Below are positions 13,785 to 30,334 of a stretch of DNA of 32,000 bases, one piece after another. Source of the stretch: Acaryochloris thomasi RCC1774. GTDB taxonomy: Bacteria; Cyanobacteriota; Cyanobacteriia; Thermosynechococcales; Thermosynechococcaceae. The translations under genes and the position numbers were made by a program. The stretch lies in contig NZ_PQWO01000004.1 of the NCBI RefSeq assembly GCF_003231495.1, positions 150,001 to 182,000 of the forward strand. The letters run 5' to 3'. Below the pieces are notes generated by a model that had not been told where the DNA came from, did not search any database, and saw nothing but the letters and a program-made list of their open reading frames with translations. Every line of letters starts with the position of its first letter. Position 1 is the first letter of the stretch.

Positions 13785-15740
13785 ATGAAGTCCATGAAAA
13801 AAACTGTAGTTGGTCTCTTCTTGGCCAGTAGTCTCGGCATGATTGGGGCAATGGAATGGGTCGCTCCTGCTGCTATTGCTCAAACCGAATCGAGTACCAT
13901 CACCTACAAAGTGGGAACTCAAAATATTCCACTAGAGGTCCGCGAGGACTTGGTGGCTGTACAGTTCAAAAGAACCCGTTCCGGTCAAGCACAACCCTTT
14001 GAGCGTTTGCAGCAAGATCTTCAAGGCGGTATCCGATCCGGTGCTGTCACAGTAGAACCCGTTCTCCAAACCTATGCGCTGATTAGCCTCAAGCGCGGGA
14101 GCCGTGGCGCAACCGTACGGGCACTTCAGCAACGGGCAGAAAATCTGGACTATGTAGAAGAGACAATTCCGGTGCTGTCTCGGCAGGACTCTGATCAGGC
14201 GGTTCTGCTGCCCAACGAACTGATGGTCACTATCGAGGGTGATACCGCACAGGTTAAGCAAGTCTTACAGCGCAACGATCTGACCTTGATTCGGCCTGTT
14301 CGCTTCACTCAAAATCGCTACTTGGTCAAAGCAAAATCAGCCCGAGGACTAGAGGTCTTAGACTTCGCCAATCAGTTGAACAATACATCTGAAATTGGAT
14401 CAGCTTCCCCTAACTTTATTCAAGATCTGGTGGTTCCTGAGCAAGAGGCCGACGCCCCGCAGGCTACGCGCCAAGCAGCTCGCTCCGCTAGCGAAATGCC
14501 GTCCCTCCGTGACGGTCAATGGCATATTGATAGTCGCCCTCAACGCGGTCAGAGTGCTTCACGCGTCGATGTTCTAGCTCCAGAAGCTTGGGAAGAAAGC
14601 AAAGACGGAAAGGGGACCGTGGTTGCGGTGCTGGACAGCTTAATCCAGTGGGACCACCCAGACTTAAAGAAAAGCATGTACAAAGTCAGGAAGGTGGCAG
14701 ATCCTTTGCCGAATGAGATACATGGCTGGGATTTTGTCGAGGACGACGCTGACACGCGCATGAGTCCATCAGAGATAGAGTGGCTAACCAGTCGTTTCCG
14801 TGACACCTTTTTACTCTCAGATGACAAGCTTGTGCAGGACTACGGCTTCAAGGGACAGTTCTCATACTGCAGCTATTACTATGCCCGCACACCTGCAGCC
14901 CATGCTAACTGTCTTCGCAGAGGCATTCGAGGAGAATCTGCGGGCACCTTTCACGGCACAATGGTTTCTGGTGTGATCGCGGCCAAATCCAAGAAAGGAG
15001 CCGTTGGGATTGCACCTAAGGCCAAAATCTTGCCCGTACGCGTCCTTGGGATTGAGGGCTATGGCAGCATGATTAACATTGCAGAGGGCATTCTTTATGC
15101 CGCCTCTCGTAATGCTGACGTGATTAACATGAGCCTCGGAGGTTCGTTCCCCAGCTATGTTCATCAAGAAGTCATCAAAGAAGTTCTGGCCGACAATCCT
15201 AACTTGGTGATCGTTGCTTCTTCCGGGAACGAAGCAACGCGTCCGGGCTATAGCGGTGAAGTTAGCTACCCTGCCGGATATCCGGGGGTTGTTGCAGTGG
15301 GCGCAACGGATTTAGAGGGACGCCGCAGCCCCTACAGCAGCTACGGAAGCCAGCTTGACGTGGTCGCTCCTGGCGGTAATACTGCGTCTGGCGTGACCGG
15401 GGGCATCTTGACCACGGGCGGTACCTTCCGTTCTGAATTTTGGGATGGAGTCGGCGATGAAGCCGTAGAGCAGTGGAACGGTGCCTTTGATCCTCGGGGA
15501 CAGTATTACTACACCCAAGGAACCTCATTCTCTAGCCCCGTCGTTGCGGGTGTCGTCGCGCTTATGAAGGGAGAAGATCGCAAGCGCAAGCTCTCTAGCC
15601 AGCAAATGATGGATATTCTAGAGCAGACGTCGAGTCTTAAAAATTTAGAGAGACTGCCTGCGGGTAAGCAAAAGCTCTACTACGGCTCGGGTTTGGTCGA
15701 TGCTCAAAAAGCGGTGCAGGCTGTCAGAGACGCCCTCTGA
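13785..15740 (+). CDS. Secreted S8 family (subtilisin-like) serine peptidase with long N-terminal region
   Basis: It has a signal peptide. The catalytic triad contexts are VVAVLDSLIQWDHPDL (Asp), GTFHGTMVSGVIAA (His) and GTSFSSPVVAGVVALM (Ser). Confidence 0.9.
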   Translation: MKSMKKTVVGLFLASSLGMIGAMEWVAPAAIAQTESSTITYKVGTQNIPLEVREDLVAVQFKRTRSGQAQPFERLQQDLQGGIRSGAVTVEPVLQTYALISLKRGSRGATVRALQQRAENLDYVEETIPVLSRQDSDQAVLLPNELMVTIEGDTAQVKQVLQRNDLTLIRPVRFTQNRYLVKAKSARGLEVLDFANQLNNTSEIGSASPNFIQDLVVPEQEADAPQATRQAARSASEMPSLRDGQWHIDSRPQRGQSASRVDVLAPEAWEESKDGKGTVVAVLDSLIQWDHPDLKKSMYKVRKVADPLPNEIHGWDFVEDDADTRMSPSEIEWLTSRFRDTFLLSDDKLVQDYGFKGQFSYCSYYYARTPAAHANCLRRGIRGESAGTFHGTMVSGVIAAKSKKGAVGIAPKAKILPVRVLGIEGYGSMINIAEGILYAASRNADVINMSLGGSFPSYVHQEVIKEVLADNPNLVIVASSGNEATRPGYSGEVSYPAGYPGVVAVGATDLEGRRSPYSSYGSQLDVVAPGGNTASGVTGGILTTGGTFRSEFWDGVGDEAVEQWNGAFDPRGQYYYTQGTSFSSPVVAGVVALMKGEDRKRKLSSQQMMDILEQTSSLKNLERLPAGKQKLYYGSGLVDAQKAVQAVRDAL

Positions 15741-15767
15741 TTTAGTGTAGAGAACGGGTGATAATTT

Positions 15768-15791
15768 CTCCGCAGCCCACAGACTGCGGAG
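15768..15791 (+). terminator. Candidate hairpin terminator after the S8 peptidase gene
   Basis: Perfect 8-bp stem ctccgcag / ctgcggag with an 8-nt loop, 28 nt after the stop. The downstream T-tract is weak (atgcctttg). Confidence 0.4.
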
Positions 15792-15876
15792 ATGCCTTTG
15801 CCTCTGCTTGCATGGCTGGCGACAGAGCTGTCGCAGCACTATCAATGGAAATTCTTTTGATTTTTGCAAAAGGATT

Positions 15877-16128
15877 ATGAAGTCTTTAATCCTTACAGTC
15901 GGTCGGCTCGCTCTAATGACGGCGGGCGTTCCTAGCGTGATCGTGTCGCTTTGGTCCGTGCCCGATGCACCCACCGTAGAGCTGATGACGGTCTTTGATC
16001 GACAGCTCCAGTAGGGACAGAACAAAGCCCAAGCTTTGCGGCAGGCAATGTTAGCGACGCTCAAGCAACATCCAGAATCCGAAACCTAGGCCGCTTTTTA
16101 TTTCATGGGAACAGTCCAGCCTAGCTGA
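15877..16128 (+). pseudogene. 3'-terminal remnant of a CHAT-domain protein gene, interrupted by two in-frame TAG codons
   Basis: The single-frame translation is ...LALMTAGVPSVIVSLWSVPDAPTVELMTVFDRQLQ*GQNKAQALRQAMLATLKQHPESET*AAFYFMG. This is the conserved CHAT C-terminus (AG.PSVV.SLW.V.D..T..LM..FY..L..G..KA.ALRQA.L......P..WAAF.L.G). Stops are at 16012-16014 and 16087-16089, the second where the conserved Trp (TGG) is expected. No catalytic region lies upstream. Confidence 0.6.
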
Positions 16129-21899: not shown

Positions 21900-21952
21900 G
21901 AGCGCATCAACCGTATTTCTTGGGTAAAGCGGAGCTGAGCGTGTCTAAGTCT

Positions 21953-23143
21953 ATGAAGATTGGCGAACTGGCCCAACAGGTCGGACTCTCCATTCGCACA
22001 CTGCACTACTACGACGAAATTGGTCTGCTCTCCCCCTCAGATCGAACGGAGGCAGGGCATCGACTTTATCGCGATCACGATATCATCCGGCTGCAGAAAG
22101 TCATTTCGCTGCAGCAGTTAGGCTTTGCGCTCAAAGAGATCCGTGAGTGTTTGGAGAATCCTGACTTTGCGCTGCCGCAGGTGATTAATCTGCATCGGGC
22201 GCGGCTGCGAGAGCAGATGGCCTTGTCGCGGACTTTGTTGGATCGACTGGATGCGATCGCAACCCAGCTCCAAACGACCCAATCGATTGCGGTTGAGAAC
22301 CTAATTCAAGCAATGGAGACGATTACTATGACGACACAATATTTCACCCCAGAACAGCAAGCCATTCTAGAGGCACGATTCGAGAAACGGGCAGTAGAGT
22401 GGCAAGATCTGCTAACCGAAATCCGAGCTGAGATGAATAGGGGCACAGAGGTCAACGATCCGAATGTGCAGCGCTTGGCTGGAGCTTGGCGCGCAAATAT
22501 GGCCTCCCTGATTCATGGCGATCGCCAAATTTACGAATCGTTTGTCAAGATGTATCAGCACGAGGGATCTGAGACGGCAGGCATAGGAGCATTAGATAAC
22601 GACACGTTTGAGTACATCTCGAAGGCCGTTTCTTTCCTTTCCCTCGCGGAAGACATGGATTTTGTGGTCACGTTTAAGCGCTTCAATGTAGAGGCCAATC
22701 AAGTTATTGCTGTGGGGCAACAGGCTATCCGTGAGCTGAACTTCAATTTCTTTGGCACCGAAGGCATGCTGCTCGGATTGCTGGCCGAAGGTAAGAGCGT
22801 GGCGGCTCAAGTGCTCATGGATGCGGGCGTCAGCTTTGGTACAACTCAGCAGGTGATCCAAGAATGGCTGGCATCTTCAGCGATTCTGCCTGAAGATATG
22901 CCTGAGCAATTGGGGTTTGCCCCCAGAGCCTACCGAGTGATGGAGCTAGCCCTCGAAGCCTTGAACCAAAGTGCGGCTCAACAACCTGCAGGGCCAGTCC
23001 GCGCCAATCCGGGGCACTTGCTGCTGGGCATTTTGCTCGAAGCTCAGGAAGGTGGCGGCGTCGCCAGCAAGATCCTGACAGATGTATTTGGCCTTGATCT
23101 GATTCAGCTTGAGCAGCAGCTTAGAACGGCGATGGTGCGGTAA
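21953..23143 (+). CDS. MerR-family regulator with TipAS-like central domain fused to a C-terminal double Clp_N (ClpA/B/C N-terminal) repeat
   Basis: The MerR HTH is MKIGELAQQVGLSIRTLHYYDEIGLL...GHRLY. The TipAS-like segment is FTPEQQAILEARF...W..L..EI...M. The C-terminal FKRFNVEANQVIAVGQQAIRELNFNFFGTEGMLLGLLAEGKSVAAQVLMDAGV...FAPRAYRVMELALEA...PGHLLLGILLEAQEGGGVASKILTDVFGLD aligns with both Clp_N repeats of ClpC. The frame is continuous with no stop. The track start at 21920 is TTG; the ATG at 21953 is preferred. Confidence 0.8.
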   Translation: MKIGELAQQVGLSIRTLHYYDEIGLLSPSDRTEAGHRLYRDHDIIRLQKVISLQQLGFALKEIRECLENPDFALPQVINLHRARLREQMALSRTLLDRLDAIATQLQTTQSIAVENLIQAMETITMTTQYFTPEQQAILEARFEKRAVEWQDLLTEIRAEMNRGTEVNDPNVQRLAGAWRANMASLIHGDRQIYESFVKMYQHEGSETAGIGALDNDTFEYISKAVSFLSLAEDMDFVVTFKRFNVEANQVIAVGQQAIRELNFNFFGTEGMLLGLLAEGKSVAAQVLMDAGVSFGTTQQVIQEWLASSAILPEDMPEQLGFAPRAYRVMELALEALNQSAAQQPAGPVRANPGHLLLGILLEAQEGGGVASKILTDVFGLDLIQLEQQLRTAMVR

Positions 23144-25193: not shown

Positions 25194-26021
25194 TTAATCC
25201 TGAGAACGCAGATGTTTGCCGTCATTTTTTAGCAGTAGCTCATCAGTGCAGCAGGGTAATAAAGGTTGATTCGCAATTTCATCAAGTTGGGCTTGCTTTA
25301 GTAAGTCAGCCCACGCTGTCTTCACTTGCGCATTTTTGGGGTACGTCTGACGAAGTTGAGCTAGAGTTGCGATCGCATCATGCCAAAGCCCATATTGAGC
25401 ATAGATCGCGACCTTTTCTAGCTCCGTTGCCTGTCCGATAGGCTCCTTGAGGCTGCTTGCTAGGGGCACGCGATAGATGGTGCCCTGTACAAACATCGTG
25501 GGATGACGAGGCGTAGCGGCAACAGCCAAAGTCCAGGTATAGCGCTTGTCGAACGCCAGCGCAGGCATCGACTCGGGTAAGCCAATTTGGACCAACCCCT
25601 GCGAAAACGAGGAAGGGAGCGTAAAGTTTGCTCTGTGGATGTAGCGATCATGCTCATCCTGAAGAACGAATTCAACAGGAGCAGACTCTAGCTCCGGCAT
25701 CATAAACCAGAGCACCGGGCGCTCCGCAGTTGTCAATCCCCAAACAAACTTTTCTTGATTGGGCCCCGTGGTTGCGGGTACCAGTGCCATTAATGGATAC
25801 ACGGACGGCAGGGCGCTCCCCCCGCGACTGGATCCACCTTTCTGACGCCCCTGGGGCGCTCTAGGATCTTTCGGAGGTGTCGGCAGAACCAACCGGAAGG
25901 CCGAGGAGCGATCGAGCGAAATCACGCTCTGAGCCTGTAAGCGGCTTGGCCAGGCCGCAGAACCGGCGACTAGCAGGCTGCCCGCTGCTAAACAATAAAT
26001 CAAGGACTGAGTGCGTTTCAT
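25194..26021 (-). CDS. Secreted DUF928 domain protein
   Basis: Signal peptide MKRTQSLIYCLAAGSLLVAGSAAWPSRLQAQS. It continues PPKDPRAPQGRQKGGSSRGG, LMALVP, GLTTAERPVLWFMMP, VEFVLQDE, KRYTWTLAV, VAIYAQYGLWHDAIATLAQL, the DUF928 pattern as I recall it. Its ATG overlaps the upstream stop (ATGA at 26018-26021). Confidence 0.75.
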   Translation of the reverse strand: MKRTQSLIYCLAAGSLLVAGSAAWPSRLQAQSVISLDRSSAFRLVLPTPPKDPRAPQGRQKGGSSRGGSALPSVYPLMALVPATTGPNQEKFVWGLTTAERPVLWFMMPELESAPVEFVLQDEHDRYIHRANFTLPSSFSQGLVQIGLPESMPALAFDKRYTWTLAVAATPRHPTMFVQGTIYRVPLASSLKEPIGQATELEKVAIYAQYGLWHDAIATLAQLRQTYPKNAQVKTAWADLLKQAQLDEIANQPLLPCCTDELLLKNDGKHLRSQD

Positions 26022-28387
26022 GGTTCAAGTTCCTTACGAGCAGGATAGTTTAGAGAGCGGACATAGGCAACGCTCAAGATCGTTGCGAGGCAGGCGAGTA
26101 TGCTAGGAATCAAAGGTAGCCATAGGCCCTGAATCAATAAGACAGCACAGCTTCCCGTGAGCCCCCCCCATATCGCAATTCCAGCGATCGCCATTGGCTT
26201 AGAAATAGACCATCGCCAAGCCCAAGCGCCCCCAACGGCGGACCAACAGAAGACCCAAATCGCATCTCCCCAGAGAGGCCATGCCCACAGGGAAGGGCGC
26301 TGATCTAAAGCGGCACTGAGAAGCTGACTCGTCATCTGAGCCTGAATAAAGACCCCCGGAACCTTGCGACCGGTCCCATAAGGGGTTGCCCAATCATCAT
26401 TACTGCTGCTGGCCGCAACGCCAATCAGAACAATCCGGTCTTTGATACGGCTGGGATCAATTTGTTCTTCCAGCACCTGGGTCAAAGTGACCTGGGGAGC
26501 AATATTCTGGGGTGATTTCAGGGCTCGGTAATTCAGCGGAATTTGAATGCCGTGCGTATCCACTGTTTGATAACCGCCCGTATGGGGTCGCAGGGTCGGC
26601 AATGTGACAGCTCCCAGTTTCAACTGATTCTGGGCGGTAAAAGTCGGCTGAATCTTCAAGTGCGAAAGATAGTGAAAGGCAAGCAAAGAGCTAAAGGCAT
26701 GAGGGGTTTTGCAGGGTGACGCAGGCTCAGGGGTCAAATACAAAAGCTGCCGCCGCAGAACGCCATCTGGATCGGCAATAAAATCGCTGAACCCCATCCG
26801 GTCCATTGAAATTTCTGGTGGTGGCGCAATGCCTGTGGGATCACTGCTGGTATCTAGGTTTTTACAAACGCCCACTAAGCCTTGAGTTTCCTGAAGCTGC
26901 TTGCTCAGACGGGGCTGATCGGGGCGTACCGGAAAGTCTCGATAAACATCAAGACCGATAACGCGAGGCTGAGCGGGTGCTAGTTTTGCAAGTAGCTGGC
27001 TCAAGGTGGCATCTGAGAGGGAGCTACGGCGAGAGTCTTCTTTCTGGGCCTGAATCTCGGCCTCTGAGACGGTGATCACCAGTAGACGAGAGTCGGGGGC
27101 CTCTAGGGGACGGAGCTGAAGCAGCCGATCTAAAGCCCACAGCTCGGGAAACTGCAGCCAGCCCACCCAGCGTCCAGCAAGAACCAAGACTGTCATCAGG
27201 AGGCTGACTTGAAGCACTGAGAGGCAGGACTGACGCCGGCGCGATGGGCGCGAGCGAGAAGTGGCGGCCTGCGTTGTGGGCAAGGCAATCGGCGCATCCG
27301 CCTGCACCTGAGATGAAAGCTCTAGCCAAGTGGGGGGAACCACCGCTGGATTTTGACAAATAACAGGTAGCCAAGTGGCGCAGGGATAAGTTTGCTCTAG
27401 GCCCTGTAATCGCTCCCGTGCTTCTCGCATGGCGAGATAAAGGGCGGTGCCCTTGGCGTAGCTCTGCAGGAAATACTTCAAAAATTCTTGGGCAACGGCA
27501 TCAGGCACGGGTTCGCGCATCACAATCAGCTGCGGGATCTGCAGATCAGCTAATGCTCTGCCCAGACCGAGGCCATCGCAGGAGTTCAAGATTGCGAGCT
27601 GGAGGCCTTTACCCACCGCCTTCTTCAGAGCATAGCGGAGATCCTCGATTTCTAAACGCTCTTCTGCATTGAGGCAGAGCGTGCCTGAGGTTGCACCTTG
27701 ACTGCAGCTATGACCTGCGAAAAATAGAATATCCCAGCGCTGCTCCCATAGCTGTTCGTTAAGCTGATGCCGATTGGGTTCGTCTAAGAAATAAATGTGC
27801 GCGTTAGGTAGCTGCTCTAATAGGGCTTGGTCAGCGCTGACATCAATACCGTTGCTGTTGCCCAAAATCGCAAGAATACGAACGTCCCCAGGTGAATGGG
27901 ACCGAAGGGGTGGATTGGCATAGGTGGGGGCCGCTAGGGCAATTTCGGTCAACGGGTAGCGCTCTAAGAGATCCCATGTATGCCAGGGTAATTTCTGGAG
28001 CTGTAGGTCGTCGGTCTGTAGGAGGATGCGGATGCGATCGCAAGGTGACAGTTGCTCTAGCAGCTTCTCTCTAATGGGCCGAAAGACGGCAACGCAAAGC
28101 CAGTCATTCATCGATCGACGAAGCACTGCCGCCGCCTGCAGACAGTCCTTTAGGCGAGAAACATTTGTAACCTGGTCAGTCACAGGCTCAATACGGGATG
28201 GTACCCCTAGCTGCCAGTAAACAGATTGCCAAGCTTGATAGTGCTGGCGCAGGTGTTCTGCAGGGGGTAGAGAGCCTGCTATTTCTGTAGAGGGACGACA
28301 TCCCTCAAGGCCCACCTGCAAGGTGAGCATAAAGCCTTCCTCAAAGCTGCCCTGCTCAAATTTTAGAACAACAAATTGATCGGCCAT
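26018..28387 (-). CDS. Membrane protein: N-terminal conserved module + CHAT (caspase-like Cys protease) domain, TM, periplasmic CHASE2 domain, three C-terminal TMs
   Basis: The CHAT core is RILAILGNS...WDILFFAGHS (His codon 27710-27712) ...LQLAILNSCDG (Cys codon 27578-27580). The basic stretch RSRPSRRRQ and TM1 (SVLQVSLLMTVLVLAG) follow. CHASE2-like elements are RLLVITVSE, VIGLDVYRDFP, FSDFIADPDGVLRR and RIVLIGVAA. Three TMs lead to a C-terminus only ~13 aa after the last one. The track start at 28399 is TTG; the ATG at 28387 is preceded by GGGGG. Confidence 0.85.
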   Translation of the reverse strand: MADQFVVLKFEQGSFEEGFMLTLQVGLEGCRPSTEIAGSLPPAEHLRQHYQAWQSVYWQLGVPSRIEPVTDQVTNVSRLKDCLQAAAVLRRSMNDWLCVAVFRPIREKLLEQLSPCDRIRILLQTDDLQLQKLPWHTWDLLERYPLTEIALAAPTYANPPLRSHSPGDVRILAILGNSNGIDVSADQALLEQLPNAHIYFLDEPNRHQLNEQLWEQRWDILFFAGHSCSQGATSGTLCLNAEERLEIEDLRYALKKAVGKGLQLAILNSCDGLGLGRALADLQIPQLIVMREPVPDAVAQEFLKYFLQSYAKGTALYLAMREARERLQGLEQTYPCATWLPVICQNPAVVPPTWLELSSQVQADAPIALPTTQAATSRSRPSRRRQSCLSVLQVSLLMTVLVLAGRWVGWLQFPELWALDRLLQLRPLEAPDSRLLVITVSEAEIQAQKEDSRRSSLSDATLSQLLAKLAPAQPRVIGLDVYRDFPVRPDQPRLSKQLQETQGLVGVCKNLDTSSDPTGIAPPPEISMDRMGFSDFIADPDGVLRRQLLYLTPEPASPCKTPHAFSSLLAFHYLSHLKIQPTFTAQNQLKLGAVTLPTLRPHTGGYQTVDTHGIQIPLNYRALKSPQNIAPQVTLTQVLEEQIDPSRIKDRIVLIGVAASSSNDDWATPYGTGRKVPGVFIQAQMTSQLLSAALDQRPSLWAWPLWGDAIWVFCWSAVGGAWAWRWSISKPMAIAGIAIWGGLTGSCAVLLIQGLWLPLIPSILACLATILSVAYVRSLNYPARKELEP

Positions 28388-28404
28388 TGCTGCCCCCAAT
28401 GGCG

Positions 28405-29343
28405 CTAGATAACAAACTGCTCCGTCACTGAGAAATCTCCCAGCATCACCTTGAGACTAAACCGCTCGCCTCGATGGCCGCTAAACTGAAGTTGAATATA
28501 GTCATCCGCACTCCTAGACCGGGCTTCCAAAACCGGCTCAGCCCCTTCGTCAAACACCACTAGCTGCAGATCAGCCGGAAGGTGGGCATCACTGGCCAAG
28601 GGATGAACCTGAACACAAAATAGGCGCTGATCTTGTCCAGGCTTGCAGTCCAGCACCAAGACCACCGGCGCTTGATTGGGCTTTAAAGAGAGCAGCTTTG
28701 CCCGCTGCACCTGCCCTTCGACAATCTGGACATCCATCGTTTCCGCCCGCCTAAAGCTCAGCGCCGGTTGAGATTGGCATAAAAGAGCATCAGCGGGTTG
28801 CCAGCCATCGGCAAAAAGGCCGCTAAACCAAAGTTCTAGCTGAGTCCAGGGCGATTTTATAGCAGGTGGGTTTAAGCTAAACTCGCTCAAATGAGCCAGC
28901 AAAGACTCCAGTGGCCTCAGTTGACCGAGCGGCAGATGTTCTGCAGCAACAGTGGGCGTAAACCCCAGCAGCCTCGCCTGACGCAAGTTCTCTGAAATTT
29001 GAACCACCAAATACCCAATTCGGTCAACCCAAACCTCAGGGGGGAGGTAGCAGACGTCTTCGTGACCTTGGACAGGCCGACACTCTAAGCGTCCTGAGGC
29101 CGCGACCTCCAAATCAGCGACGTTGCTACAGGCCCGTACGACGGGATTCCAGCTATCACCGGCATCCAGATCGCAGGGAATACCCATCATTTGCAGGTAG
29201 TCGTGGGTCACCCACACGGCTAAGGTGTTAAGACAAACCTGTTGGGCCTTATCGGGTGTGGCCTGCTGAGCCGAAAACGCTGCAGCCATCTGACGAGCAG
29301 CTGTGGTAATTGGCAGGACAAGAGACTGATCTTCAACTTGCAT
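28405..29343 (-). CDS. DUF1822 family protein
   Basis: 312 aa, soluble. QQVCLNTLAVWVTHDYL, DSWNPVVR, VADLEV...GRLECRPV, LPPEVWVDRIGYLVVQI, LLGF, and a C-terminal LPADLQLVVFDEGAEP...IQLQFSGHRGERFSLKVML...TEQFVI match my recollection of the cyanobacterial DUF1822 consensus. Confidence 0.65.
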   Translation of the reverse strand: MQVEDQSLVLPITTAARQMAAAFSAQQATPDKAQQVCLNTLAVWVTHDYLQMMGIPCDLDAGDSWNPVVRACSNVADLEVAASGRLECRPVQGHEDVCYLPPEVWVDRIGYLVVQISENLRQARLLGFTPTVAAEHLPLGQLRPLESLLAHLSEFSLNPPAIKSPWTQLELWFSGLFADGWQPADALLCQSQPALSFRRAETMDVQIVEGQVQRAKLLSLKPNQAPVVLVLDCKPGQDQRLFCVQVHPLASDAHLPADLQLVVFDEGAEPVLEARSRSADDYIQLQFSGHRGERFSLKVMLGDFSVTEQFVI

Positions 29344-29367
29344 TAATGGGCCTAATAGAGACTCCTA

Positions 29368-30087
29368 TTATAAATATCCTTGGCATTGCCCAAAGTTACG
29401 CAAGCGCGTGACACATTTTCTCTGATAGAAGCTACTCAAGGTAGAAACGGCAACACCAAACTCAGTCGACAGGTCTTCCCAGCTCGTTTCGGGCGGTAAA
29501 CGACGGAGGATCAGAGCCTGACAGTTGACTTCAGGTCGATTCTGGACGTGGGTACTGCGCAGTTCCCCAGTGGCATCTAGCTCAGCCCAAGTGCGAGTGT
29601 CTTCTAGAATGGGCGGTACATCAGGGCTAGACGGGAGATTTTCGGTTATATCTTTCTGGCTGTTCATGCTTCCCGGTGGGGGAGCATAGGCAAACTTTTT
29701 TTGCTGGGTTTGTTTAGCAATGCGAAAATCCTGCAGCCGCCATTTCAGATAGCGATTGAGCCAAGTAATGACGCTACTGCGGTCGGGATCGTACCGCTGT
29801 CCAGTCCCTGCCTCACAGATATTCTGGCAGAAATAGATCCACATCTGCTGCTTGGCATCTTCGTAAAAAGGTGTGTTTTCGTGCCAGAGCTTCTGTGATT
29901 GCTCAATCAGCCGAATAATTTGAGTCAGACATTGCTGACGTTTAAAGTGACCAGGCGAGTATCGACGAGCTTCAGCTACAAGGGAGCGGATTTCCTCCTC
30001 GATAGTCCTGCGTTGTTCTGTCAGTTGCATACCATCACCGTTAGACAATGAACCAGTTAGTTTAGAAGATTGCAGTGGGTGAGGCAT
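29368..30087 (-). CDS. Sigma-70 family (ECF-like, group 4-like) RNA polymerase sigma factor homologue
   Basis: The region-2-like segment is YEDAKQQMWIYFCQNI...YDPDRSSVITWLNRYLKWRLQDFR. The region-4-like HTH is CQALILRRLPPETSWEDLSTEFGVAVSTLSSFYQRKCVTRLRNF. A linker of ~60 aa separates them. An alternative ATG lies at 30030. Confidence 0.7.
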   Translation of the reverse strand: MPHPLQSSKLTGSLSNGDGMQLTEQRRTIEEEIRSLVAEARRYSPGHFKRQQCLTQIIRLIEQSQKLWHENTPFYEDAKQQMWIYFCQNICEAGTGQRYDPDRSSVITWLNRYLKWRLQDFRIAKQTQQKKFAYAPPPGSMNSQKDITENLPSSPDVPPILEDTRTWAELDATGELRSTHVQNRPEVNCQALILRRLPPETSWEDLSTEFGVAVSTLSSFYQRKCVTRLRNFGQCQGYL

Positions 30088-30334
30088 TGAACAAAAACGG
30101 TGTCAGATGGCGAGCGATTCAGTAAGCAGTGACGCGAACGTCAAGTTAGTGAACTGATGCCAGAAACACTGTCGTTCAACCCCGTTAGTGAATACAGTAA
30201 TGAAGTGGCTTGAGTCTGCCAGTGAGATAAATCACACGCCGACTACAATTTTTCCCCTTTCTTAATTTCTCATGAGAGCTGATTTTGGACAATAGCAAGT
30301 CAGATGACAAGATATTCTAGCGATTGCTCCGTTT

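Follow-up and report, generated by a model that had tools for sequence, protein, structure and literature searches.

A four-gene operon in Acaryochloris thomasi linking an ECF-type sigma factor and DUF1822 to an EACC2-CHAT-CHASE2 protein: a candidate signaling module with proteolytic output

Acaryochloris thomasi RCC1774 carries four consecutive minus-strand genes that form a conserved, co-oriented unit widespread in cyanobacteria. In the 5′ to 3′ order of that strand their products are a divergent ECF-type sigma factor, a DUF1822 protein, a protein joining EACC2, CHAT, a transmembrane (TM) segment, CHASE2, and three further TM helices, and a secreted DUF928 protein. We tentatively read them as a transmembrane signaling module with proteolytic output, in which CHAT would cleave DUF1822 and free the sigma factor; our confidence in this reading falls somewhat below even. 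Proteins that combine EACC2, a caspase domain, and variable sensors, CHASE2 included, were linked to an ECF sigma factor and DUF1822 by Kaur, Iyer, Burroughs, and Aravind (eLife 2021; PMC8195603), who label such architectures EACC2+CASPASE+X, propose a protease-triggered sigma output, and list the identical four-gene arrangement in Fischerella in a supplementary table. An earlier note on this DNA overstated the novelty of the locus, since the four-gene EACC2-caspase arrangement was already catalogued computationally in 2021 (PMC8195603).

Operon layout and upstream region

We analyzed a 32,000-nt stretch (positions 150,001 to 182,000 of contig NZ_PQWO01000004.1), called the window here, and all positions are counted from its first letter. 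The four open reading frames (30087-29368, 29343-28405, 28399/28387-26018, and 26021-25194, all minus strand) lie where the earlier note had placed them, and its gaps, ATGA overlap, and upstream region are likewise confirmed. The sigma frame is separated from the DUF1822 gene by 24 nt and the DUF1822 gene from the CHAT gene by 17 nt (5 nt if TTG is the start), while the stop codon of the CHASE2 fusion overlaps the DUF928 start in a 4-nt ATGA (CCA TGA / ATG AAA), through which the DUF928 gene is predicted to be translationally coupled to the CHASE2 gene. Terminator-like sites were sought in the short intergenic gaps and none were found; across the region their number (11, versus 7.1 ± 2.5 expected) is within chance. 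Homologue alignment assigns the CHAT gene start to ATG 28387. The sigma start is most likely ATG 30030 (Met20) rather than 30087, because homologues, about 220 aa long, start at this point and a Shine-Dalgarno-like GGTGAT precedes it by 4 nt, and the intergenic region 5′ of the operon accordingly measures 312 nt from 30087 or 369 nt from ATG 30030. Housekeeping genes flank the operon, and GC content is uniform. A RibD_C/DHFR-like gene begins 39 nt 3′ of the DUF928 gene and had been thought possibly co-transcribed, but it is not a module member, being missing from all 12 related loci screened and from the other gene tables inspected.

A divergent thioredoxin-like gene shares the upstream intergenic region. 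This region also holds a CRP-like palindrome, TGTGA-N6-TCAC (30222..30236, minus strand), a candidate activator site centered about −41.5 from a transcription start that is predicted from sequence near 30187. The palindrome is the single match in the 32-kb window (0.17 expected), forms the best-conserved block in an upstream alignment with related loci L001, L002, and L011, and is present upstream of the sigma gene in 5 of 42 regions, where shuffling gives a mean of 0.18. A −10-like hexamer, TACTGT (TAnnnT; 30194..30199, minus strand), lies 22 nt downstream of it; the hexamer is the same in L001 and L002 and reads TACCGT in L011 and TAGTGT in L014, with spacing unchanged. A class II promoter of the CRP type (cAMP-dependent) may drive the operon in this lineage; the palindrome could also serve the thioredoxin-like gene. 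A search upstream of the sigma genes for a common ECF-type promoter motif gave none, which leaves sigma autoregulation unsupported.

The four proteins

Pfam recovers the DUF1822, CHAT/CHASE2, and DUF928 families named in the earlier note, but its sigma-like protein (29368..30030, minus strand, 220 aa; the longest frame would begin at 30087) has no match when searched directly against Pfam and NCBIfam. Its assignment as a divergent ECF-type sigma factor nevertheless holds, with the start moved to ATG 30030, through transitive evidence from remote homology and fold. The family exceeds 1000 proteins, and NCBI names some of them as sigma-70 family; among 42 members sampled, 13 match Sigma70_r2 (best, 1.7e-7) and 3 match Sigma70_r4_2, and the family profile searched against the PDB finds the ECF sigma factors SigE (1.7e-4) and SigK (2.2e-3). 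In the AF2 model (pLDDT 84) a disordered linker joins a sigma2-like helical domain to a sigma4-like HTH domain, and nearly all of the model's 50 best Foldseek matches in the PDB are sigma factors, ECF sigmas first, none with an E value below 0.0098. Cys68, Cys72, and Cys206 (220-aa numbering; codons 29827-29829, 29815-29817, and 29413-29415) are invariant.

The cytoplasmic DUF1822 protein (28405..29343, minus strand, 312 aa; Pfam DUF1822, 4.6e-70) is modeled by AF2 (pLDDT 82.6) with an alpha+beta domain at the N-terminus (aa 8-156) and an Ig-like beta-sandwich at the C-terminus (aa 212-311), joined by a low-confidence linker (aa 157-206, with disordered segments 157-164 and 190-206). The earlier note had seen in it neither a TM segment, nor a ZAS motif, nor a recognizable anti-sigma, and we concur: no TM segment is predicted, inspection finds no ZAS motif, and Foldseek with the model yields only generic beta-sandwich matches and no recognizable anti-sigma fold. 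A PDB search for sequence relatives found none. Of 43 DUF1822 sequences, at least 95% keep R198 and at least 80% keep F197, in a linker that is otherwise variable; these two residues (codons 28750..28755, minus strand), which lie in its disordered part, mark a candidate site of cleavage, with Arg in the P1 position. DUF1822 is proposed to be both sigma-binding adaptor and protease substrate.

The third protein begins with a constant N-terminal domain, the EACC2 of Kaur et al. 2021 (aa 1-96; 28100..28387, minus strand), which is conserved, with many positions invariant, across 20 homologues and for which a Pfam search found no model. The CHAT domain that follows (27371..28099, minus strand; Pfam CHAT, 2.2e-18) is a cytoplasmic caspase-fold cysteine protease whose predicted catalytic residues, His226 (27710-27712) and Cys270 (27578-27580), are invariant in the 20 homologues, where they lie in the motifs FFAGHS and NSCDG; numbered from ATG 28387, they equal the H230 and C274 that the earlier note counted from the TTG. 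The membrane sensor (26018..27229, minus strand) consists of TM1 (aa 387-405), extracytoplasmic CHASE2 (aa ~399-720; Pfam CHASE2, 6.9e-61), and about three C-terminal TM helices, the TM segments being placed by hydropathy scan. An Arg-rich stretch before TM1, SRSRPSRRRQS, points by the positive-inside rule to a cytoplasmic N-terminus, and the predicted topology puts EACC2 and CHAT in the cytoplasm and CHASE2 in the periplasm. The locus was also said to contain no cyclase, which is true of this locus, but close relatives have a cyclase domain between CHAT and the first TM.

The DUF928 protein (25194..26021, minus strand, 275 aa; Pfam DUF928, 2.8e-50) opens with a signal peptide recognized by inspection (aa 1-30, 25932-26021, minus strand; MKRTQS, a hydrophobic stretch, and LQA/QS), and its C-terminal region is weakly TPR-like (Pfam TPR_14 at 0.008). 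The hydropathy scan and inspection agree with the earlier placement of CHAT inside, CHASE2 outside, and DUF928 secreted. We propose DUF928 as a periplasmic partner of CHASE2; in Nostoc punctiforme a DUF928 gene follows a CHASE2 protein that lacks CHAT.

Conservation and modularity across cyanobacteria

The earlier note placed these families side by side in other cyanobacteria, and a neighborhood census of 78 distinct sigma loci, with denominators that shrink stepwise (64, 29, 22, 16), bears out conserved linkage. DUF1822 lies next to the sigma gene in 37 of 64 sigma-family loci, EACC2-CHAT comes next after the pair in 26 of 29, CHASE2 is fused to EACC2-CHAT in 20 of 22, and DUF928 follows the fusion in all 16 loci with enough sequence. 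Linkage is kept in differing genomic surroundings, among them those of Kovacikia, Allocoleopsis PCC 7113, Leptolyngbya FACHB-261, Thermosynechococcaceae MAGs, and a Nostoc flagelliforme plasmid. The sigma-DUF1822-EACC2-CHAT core also occurs with other C-termini, and the EACC2 HMM detects the N-termini of CHAT proteins ending in nSTAND1+WD40 (L036), PsbP-like (L087), or unknown (L028) domains, as well as a Pseudanabaena plasmid protein; these correspond to the EACC2+CASPASE+X architectures of Kaur et al. A link between sigma and CHAT is also seen where paralogous sigmas of the same family adjoin TPR-CHAT proteases. The parts also separate: one subfamily (DUF2330-sigma-TPR-CHAT) is entirely without DUF1822, and N. 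punctiforme has DUF1822-CHAT/CHASE2-DUF928 with no adjacent sigma gene.

A proposed route from sensor to sigma factor

In the reading that we tentatively prefer, DUF928 would partner CHASE2 on the periplasmic side, whether by co-sensing, ligand binding, or inhibition, and a signal would alter the membrane protein's conformation or oligomeric state, rendering the cytoplasmic caspase-like protease active. DUF1822, which at rest would keep the sigma factor inactive, would then be cleaved or remodeled, with the cut in its disordered inter-domain linker and most likely after Arg198, and the released sigma would bind RNA polymerase and switch on its regulon. DUF1822 appears substrate-like because two folded domains flank a low-pLDDT linker with a conserved R198. 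Ortho- and metacaspases favor a basic residue at P1. CHAT-gated control of an ECF sigma factor has precedents in Csx29, which cleaves the RpoE binder Csx30 (PMC9825189), and DdvA/DdvS (PMC11506125), and the HTH+TRADD-N(DUF1822) fusion proteins tabulated by Kaur et al. (PMC8195603) argue for a direct sigma/HTH-DUF1822 partnership. The anatomy is consistent with the order drawn in the earlier note, from CHASE2/DUF928 through CHAT and DUF1822 to sigma; the wiring itself we infer. Counting against cleavage, DUF1822 has no similarity to known anti-sigma domains, sigma and DUF1822 are separable (N. punctiforme; DUF2330-sigma-TPR-CHAT), the window sigma falls below Pfam thresholds with Foldseek E values all at least 0.0098, and the CHAT protease of Craspase does not cut after Arg.

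Autoproteolysis with an adaptor switch, rather than anti-sigma destruction, is the reading favored by Kaur et al. (PMC8195603). On receipt of the signal, CHAT would cleave its own chain, for instance in the CHAT-TM1 linker, freeing or activating EACC2-CHAT, and DUF1822, as a TRADD-N-type adaptor, would swap partners and recruit or license sigma, acting positively rather than as a cleaved anti-sigma. This published proposal fits the CHAT-TM1 linker, which is variable, Arg-rich, and roughly 45 residues long, the proposed self-cleavage of DdvA in its own linker (PMC11506125), and the absence of any anti-sigma signature in DUF1822. We nonetheless judge it possible but unlikely, as the TRADD-N fold is unconfirmed in the window DUF1822 (no Pfam TRADD_N match, no evident uS motif), the C-terminal part is a beta-sandwich and not the TPRs of the Kaur et al. 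label, and the near-invariant Arg in the DUF1822 linker is left unexplained.

Direct processing of sigma by CHAT, at the sigma2-sigma4 linker or the N-terminus, would activate a pro-sigma or destroy the factor, with DUF1822 only presenting the substrate. Bacillus sigmaE and sigmaK are established cases of pro-sigma processing, the sigma model contains a low-confidence linker of 25-30 residues, and paralogous sigmas sit beside TPR-CHAT proteases in the absence of DUF1822; we still find this route doubtful, given that no strongly conserved residue appears in the sigma linker alignment and that sigma and DUF1822 are strictly adjacent in the EACC2 type (37 loci), which suggests that DUF1822 is not simply optional.

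It is similarly improbable that the operon is a conflict or programmed-cell-death system, directed against invaders or acting by abortive infection, in which the active protease would attack many cell proteins and sigma would only amplify defense genes. The EACC2-caspase group does include nSTAND1/WD40 sensors typical of conflict systems, TPR-CHAT genes are frequent neighbors, module copies occur on cyanobacterial plasmids, and one sigma-family member has a weak match to the death-like domain bDLD3 (E = 0.0099). Yet none of the four proteins matches PADLOC, CHASE2, an extracytoplasmic sensor, occurs mostly on ordinary signaling proteins, the flanks are housekeeping genes and GC content is uniform, and gene order and sequence in the module hold up well from one cyanobacterial order to another, in contrast to fast-diversifying defense islands. 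That the genes are mere neighbors, as a 160- to 370-nt DUF1822-CHAT gap with room for its own promoter in some relatives might suggest, or that CHAT is a non-catalytic scaffold, is very hard to credit against an order kept in dozens of loci with different flanks, gaps of 24, 17, and −4 nt at the window locus, and an invariant His/Cys dyad.

The window operon is a further case of an EACC2-caspase system known from computation, whose core is sigma, DUF1822, and EACC2-CHAT and in which several sensor heads are interchangeable, CHASE2 with DUF928 being one.

Gene layout and domain content of the operon

The ORF list of the window contains four consecutive minus-strand ORFs at 30087-29368, 29343-28405, 28399/28387-26018 and 26021-25194, just where the earlier note had placed a sigma-like/DUF1822/CHAT-CHASE2/DUF928 operon; its intergenic distances (24 nt, 17 nt or 5 nt with a TTG start, and a 4-nt ATGA overlap) are likewise correct. 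Pfam recovered three of the four families directly (DUF1822, CHAT plus CHASE2, and DUF928). The GC content of the operon matches that of the rest of the window, and terminator-like hairpins in the region show no excess over shuffled sequences, with none inside the short gaps. A RibD_C/DHFR-like gene (PF01872, 9.7e-19) begins 39 nt downstream and had been thought possibly co-transcribed; it is missing from all twelve related loci screened, and equally from the further gene tables examined, and is ruled out as an operon member.

Homologues support ATG 28387 as the start of the CHAT-CHASE2 gene. Its product carries CHAT (2.2e-18) and CHASE2 (PF05226, 6.9e-61; aa 403-724 in TTG numbering) in one polypeptide. 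The N-terminal 96-aa domain is conserved and lacks a Pfam model, and an HMM built from it finds the N termini of CHAT proteins whose C termini are nSTAND1+WD40, PsbP-like or of no known type. This domain is EACC2, as identified by architecture match to the EACC2+CASPASE+X entries of Kaur et al. and not by a direct profile match. The catalytic dyad of the CHAT domain, His226 (in FFAGHS) and Cys270 (in NSCDG), is intact and invariant in the homologue alignment. A variable linker ending in an Arg-rich stretch leads to TM1, followed by CHASE2 and about three more TM helices, for four in all by hydropathy; the positive-inside rule predicts a cytoplasmic protease and an extracytoplasmic CHASE2. Profile searches found no sequence relatives of this protein in the PDB. 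In close relatives (L011:7199-10252 and L014:9705-12839) an adenylate/guanylate cyclase domain (PF00211) is inserted between CHAT and TM1, as it is in the homologous proteins P0128, P0131, P0167 and P0234; a protease and a cyclase are thus the two cytoplasmic outputs in some forms of the module.

The last gene encodes a DUF928 protein (PF06051, 2.8e-50, profile positions 2-184 of 184) with a weakly TPR-like C-terminal region. Its N terminus looks by inspection like a typical Sec signal peptide, in line with the secretion that the earlier note had predicted.

DUF1822, the product of the second gene, matches its Pfam family over its full length (4.6e-70), and its closest relative (95% identical) is encoded by the MAG "Cyanobacteria bacterium P01_A01_bin.17." The AF2 model (pLDDT 82.6) starts with an alpha+beta domain (aa 8-156), continues with a low-confidence linker (aa 157-206), and ends in an Ig-like beta-sandwich modeled with good confidence (aa 212-311). 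Across 43 sequences, only W172, W181, F197 and R198 stand out from an otherwise variable linker, R198 being kept in at least 95%. The protein has none of the anti-sigma features that we looked for: no TM segment is predicted and there is no conserved HxxxCxxC motif of zinc-binding (ZAS) anti-sigma factors, as had been noted before, nor is there a helical anti-sigma domain in the model. Profile searches of the PDB returned no sequence relatives, and Foldseek returned only generic Ig-like beta-sandwich matches for the model. Kaur et al. describe DUF1822 as TRADD-N plus TPRs, whereas our model has an alpha+beta domain and a beta-sandwich. TRADD-N is defined as an RRM-like two-layer alpha+beta sandwich and the modeled N-terminal domain is alpha+beta, but Pfam TRADD_N matched none of 30 DUF1822 members, and the alignment contains no clear TRADD-N "uS" motif (beta2-beta3 turn). 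The C-terminal third, called TPR in this sole paper discussing the family, is an Ig-like beta-sandwich in the model.

Two other genes of the window deserve mention. The plus-strand gene at 21920-23143, three genes from the operon, fuses a MerR HTH, a TipAS antibiotic-recognition domain and Clp_N in an unusual architecture that is not kept beside the operon elsewhere. Directly after a subtilase S8 gene (13785-15737) lies a short plus-strand ORF (15751-16011), probably what is left of a CHAT gene; its match to the CHAT profile (E 2.5e-8) is confined to C-terminal positions 217-250 of 289.

A divergent family of ECF-type sigma factors

The sigma-like call for the first gene failed as a direct Pfam or NCBIfam match and stood as transitive profile homology to ECF sigmas. 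The window protein matches no sigma model in either collection, missing the thresholds of Sigma70_r2 and Sigma70_r4/r4_2; weak r2 and r4 matches occur in 1 of 24 close homologues, and a close-homologue profile reached E 0.12 at best against the PDB. The family as a whole is large, with more than 1,000 proteins in 90% clusters and 897 clusters at 50% identity. Among 42 diverse members, 13 match Sigma70_r2 (best 1.7e-7) and three match Sigma70_r4_2 (3.9e-7), and the profile of this 42-member set retrieves the ECF sigma factors SigE (1.7e-4) and SigK (2.2e-3) from the PDB over region 2. These transitive matches are decisive, and they lead us to place the window protein among the ECF-type sigma factors as a strongly divergent member. 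For region 4, hhalign against a provisional Escherichia coli RpoE template sequence gave a weak match (E 0.003, probability 10.5%). The AF2 model (pLDDT 84) has two helical domains with a disordered linker between them; a Foldseek search of the PDB with this model gave sigma factors for almost all of the top 50 matches, ECF sigmas first (SigL, SigH, AlgU, sigmaE, CnrH and SigK leading), with every E value at least 0.0098. Global TM scores are low because the two domains are flexibly linked.

Homologues are about 220 aa long and begin at Met20 of the ORF that starts at 30087, and a GGTGAT Shine-Dalgarno-like element, kept in relatives, lies 4 nt ahead of the Met20 ATG. The gene therefore most likely spans 30030-29368, so that the 312-nt upstream intergenic region of the earlier note holds for an ORF start at 30087 but not for this start.

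Several features of the family are unusual or variable. Cys68, Cys72 and Cys206 in 220-aa numbering (window 29827-29829, 29815-29817 and 29413-29415) are invariant; the sigma2-like domain thus has an invariant FCQNxCE (CxxxC) motif and the sigma4-like domain an invariant Cys. Sigma factors seldom have such cysteines, which may make up a metal or redox site. Several longer members (P0387, P0393, P0406, P0434, P0459, P0475 and P0485) have a duplicated sigma4-like C-terminal domain (sigma2-sigma4-sigma4); this accounts for the longer proteins among 150 family representatives, which include no sigma-DUF1822 fusion. A distantly related member weakly resembles a bacterial death-like domain (bDLD3, E 0.0099).

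Conserved linkage, modularity and upstream region

The order sigma, DUF1822, CHAT-CHASE2, DUF928 recurs in unrelated genomic contexts. A scan of genome contigs with one DUF1822 protein found three loci, in two Thermosynechococcaceae MAGs and an uncultured cyanobacterium, and the same order is present in Kovacikia minuta, Allocoleopsis franciscana PCC 7113, a metagenome contig, Leptolyngbya FACHB-261 and, on a plasmid, Nostoc flagelliforme. A metagenome scan with the sigma alignment yielded 80 further loci; the 78 distinct sigma loci that remained after de-duplication were annotated with HMMs from alignments made in this analysis. DUF1822 lies directly downstream of sigma at 37 of the 64 loci with at least 1.2 kb of downstream sequence, and EACC2+CHAT then follows at 26 of 29 (at least 2.5 kb). 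CHASE2 is fused to EACC2+CHAT at 20 of 22 loci with at least 3.9 kb, and DUF928 comes next at all 16 CHASE2-type loci with at least 4.9 kb. The linkage that the earlier note had mentioned for other cyanobacterial genomes is thus borne out: the observation is real, and the four genes are a conserved functional unit.

The sensor half of this unit varies. Sigma-DUF1822 pairs also precede EACC2-CHAT proteins with other C termini, namely, nSTAND1+WD40 (locus L036), PsbP-like (L087) and unassigned (L028, where the next ORF downstream is not DUF928). Nostoc punctiforme, which like Allocoleopsis PCC 7113 is a module carrier with a sequenced genome, has a DUF1822-CHAT/CHASE2-DUF928 cluster with no adjacent sigma gene; the ORFs upstream are Rpn-like. 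A divergent neighbor cluster there (L009:2617-6418, CP001037.1) encodes a response regulator, CHASE2 without CHAT, DUF928 and a TPS-domain (two-partner-secretion) protein. From the alternative C termini and the CHAT-less CHASE2-DUF928 pairing it follows that sigma, DUF1822 and EACC2-CHAT are the core, and that CHASE2 with DUF928 is one exchangeable sensor head.

A second context involves a paralogous sigma gene downstream of RnfD-like and DUF2330 genes at 18 loci, several of which continue with a TPR-CHAT protease of about 912 aa and have no DUF1822; loci of this DUF2330-sigma branch include L039, L050, L063, L066, L067, L078, L084, L088 and L091. CHAT proteases of two architectures thus accompany this sigma family, which strengthens the sigma-protease connection and shows that DUF1822 is not indispensable for it. 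TPR-CHAT genes also often neighbor the four-gene module, on its upstream side in divergent orientation or after DUF928 (L002, L003, L049, L056, L058, L090 and L094); the window holds no intact copy. On a plasmid of Pseudanabaena sp. ABRG5-3 (L093:5313-12662, NZ_AP017563.1), sigma and DUF1822 are followed by a membrane M48 metallopeptidase, two small genes and an EACC2-CHAT gene with a different C terminus, placing a second protease class inside the module. Replacement of CHAT by the metallopeptidase is ruled out there, as EACC2-CHAT is present 3.8 kb downstream.

The top phylogenetic footprint upstream of the operon is a CRP-type palindrome, TGTGATTTATCTCAC (30236-30222, minus strand; TGTGA-N6-TCAC), which is the sole match in the window against 0.17 expected. 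It is lineage-specific, being kept at 5 of 42 loci (the window, L001, L002, L011 and L014), and its spacer differs in two of the other four. In the window and all four of these loci, a TAnnGT -10-like box (window 30194-30199, minus strand) lies 22 nt downstream of the palindrome, a spacing that would center it at about -41.5, in class II CRP-dependent geometry. This arrangement suggests cAMP/CRP-family control of the operon in this lineage, or of a divergent thioredoxin-like gene, which the palindrome could also serve. That gene is common only to the closest relatives L001, L002 and L011 and reflects local synteny. Upstream of 38 non-redundant sigma genes, searches with gapped dyads and k-mers against shuffles found no shared ECF-type promoter above chance; the sole above-chance motif was the cyanobacterial HIP1 palindrome GCGATCGC.

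Proposed signaling route, precedents and alternatives

Systems of this type have been described computationally. Kaur, Iyer, Burroughs and Aravind (eLife 2021, PMC8195603) reported EACC2-caspase systems with an ECF sigma and DUF1822/TRADD-N and proposed that stimulus-induced autopeptidase activation feeds the sigma factor. Their supplementary entry for Fischerella, [quoted passage not shown] matches the present four genes in arrangement, and a TPR-CHAT gene stands in the entry as well; their table also lists HTH+TRADD-N fusions annotated as DUF1822 by NCBI (PMC8195603). As in the window, their systems combine a constant N-terminal domain and caspase/CHAT with a variable C-terminal sensor, TM-CHASE2-TM included, and have DUF1822 and an ECF-like sigma or HTH gene adjacent. 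The present operon belongs to this EACC2-caspase/DUF1822/ECF-sigma class by its EACC2 domain (assigned by architecture), its CHAT domain with a His-Cys dyad, and its variable sensor and neighbors. DUF928 is not named by Kaur et al., and its strict coupling to CHASE2 is not discussed there. The caspase+CHASE2 architecture was itself catalogued before 2021, as PMC7475262 cites Jiang 2010 and Asplund-Samuelsson 2012 for cyanobacterial orthocaspases with CHASE2. The novelty suggested by the earlier note was therefore overstated, since the system type and even the gene order already stood in a computational catalogue. Its statement on experiments held: our literature search turned up no experimental study of DUF1822, DUF928 or the operon. 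No EACC2-caspase system is, to our knowledge, the subject of laboratory work.

Of the readings considered, a protease-gated pathway from the envelope to transcription has the best support. The earlier note proposed it, Kaur et al. had outlined it before, and its wiring is plausible. DUF928 would partner CHASE2 in the periplasm, and a signal would activate the cytoplasmic CHAT domain. DUF1822 would hold the sigma factor until cut in its disordered linker, where R198 is the candidate P1 residue, and the sigma factor would then be released. Joined into a single scheme, these steps would form a one-step, non-RIP route in which periplasmic CHASE2/DUF928 controls a caspase-like protease on the same polypeptide and DUF1822 acts as a soluble anti-sigma of a new class; this full scheme is tentative.

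Precedents exist for parts of this logic. In the type III-E CRISPR Craspase, the TPR-CHAT protein Csx29 cuts Csx30, a binding partner of the ECF sigma RpoE (PMC9825189, PMC9729208). Among systems studied by experiment it comes closest to the proposed logic, by analogy: there too a signal-activated CHAT protease cuts a two-part adaptor bound to an ECF sigma. The likeness lies in logic only: by PADLOC models, none of the Craspase set (Cas7-11/gRAMP, Csx29, Csx30 and Csx31) is among the four proteins, and no homology of Csx30 or Csx31 to DUF1822 was detected. Moreover, the Craspase input is crRNA-guided RNA recognition by Cas7-11 instead of a membrane sensor, and its CHAT domain is preceded by TPRs instead of EACC2.

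In Myxococcus xanthus DdvS/DdvA, the partner of the ECF sigma is a transmembrane anti-sigma bearing a periplasmic TPR-CHAT (PMC11506125). Both systems have an ECF sigma and a CHAT membrane protein with a His-Cys dyad, with proteolysis as the proposed trigger and, in our case, sigma control as the proposed outcome. The topology of DdvA is inverted, with CHAT in the periplasm, a zinc-binding anti-sigma domain in the cytoplasm and a single TM, whereas here an N-terminal CHAT is predicted in the cytoplasm and CHASE2 in the periplasm, with four TM helices and no ZAS. The putative sigma-binding function here resides on a separate soluble protein, and no step like the S2P protease RseP, needed for release from DdvA, is implied. 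The sigmaE-RseA-DegS-RseP pathway likewise runs from envelope signal through proteolysis to release of an ECF-type sigma, but the present system has no single-pass anti-sigma and no site-1/site-2 cascade, and its protease and sensor form one polypeptide with a cytoplasmic caspase-fold enzyme. In 2003, Zhulin et al. reportedly described CHASE2 in cyclases, kinases and diguanylate cyclases. CHASE2 kinases and cyclases share the TM-CHASE2-3TM sensor, whereas the output domain here is a protease placed N-terminal to it.

Three other readings compete with cleavage of DUF1822. The first, self-cleavage of the protease coupled to an adaptor switch, accords with the autoproteolysis of Kaur et al., where we propose a cut in DUF1822 at its conserved Arg; we regard it as possible but doubtful. 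Direct processing of the sigma factor by the protease is unlikely. A role in cell death or defense is about as unlikely; PADLOC v2 defense and CRISPR-associated models gave no relevant match to the four proteins, the RT_IX hit (0.005) being at chance level.

The operon is a widespread cyanobacterial signaling module, for which the protease-gated model makes sharp, inexpensively testable predictions: that the cut falls after R198, that a C270A mutant is blind, and that deletion of DUF1822 makes the regulon constitutive. If the model is true, it would add a third distinct mechanism by which CHAT proteases gate ECF sigmas, after Craspase-Csx30-RpoE and DdvA-DdvS, and one widespread in cyanobacteria. 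It would give functions to DUF1822, DUF928 and EACC2, three large families without any, and provide a tractable transcriptional readout for CHASE2. Should the joint scheme hold, sigma, DUF1822 and EACC2-CHAT would be a general "caspase-to-sigma" cassette plugged onto CHASE2, STAND NTPases and PsbP-like domains. The model, if it holds, would also inform the debate over whether orthocaspases of cyanobacteria serve signaling or cell death.
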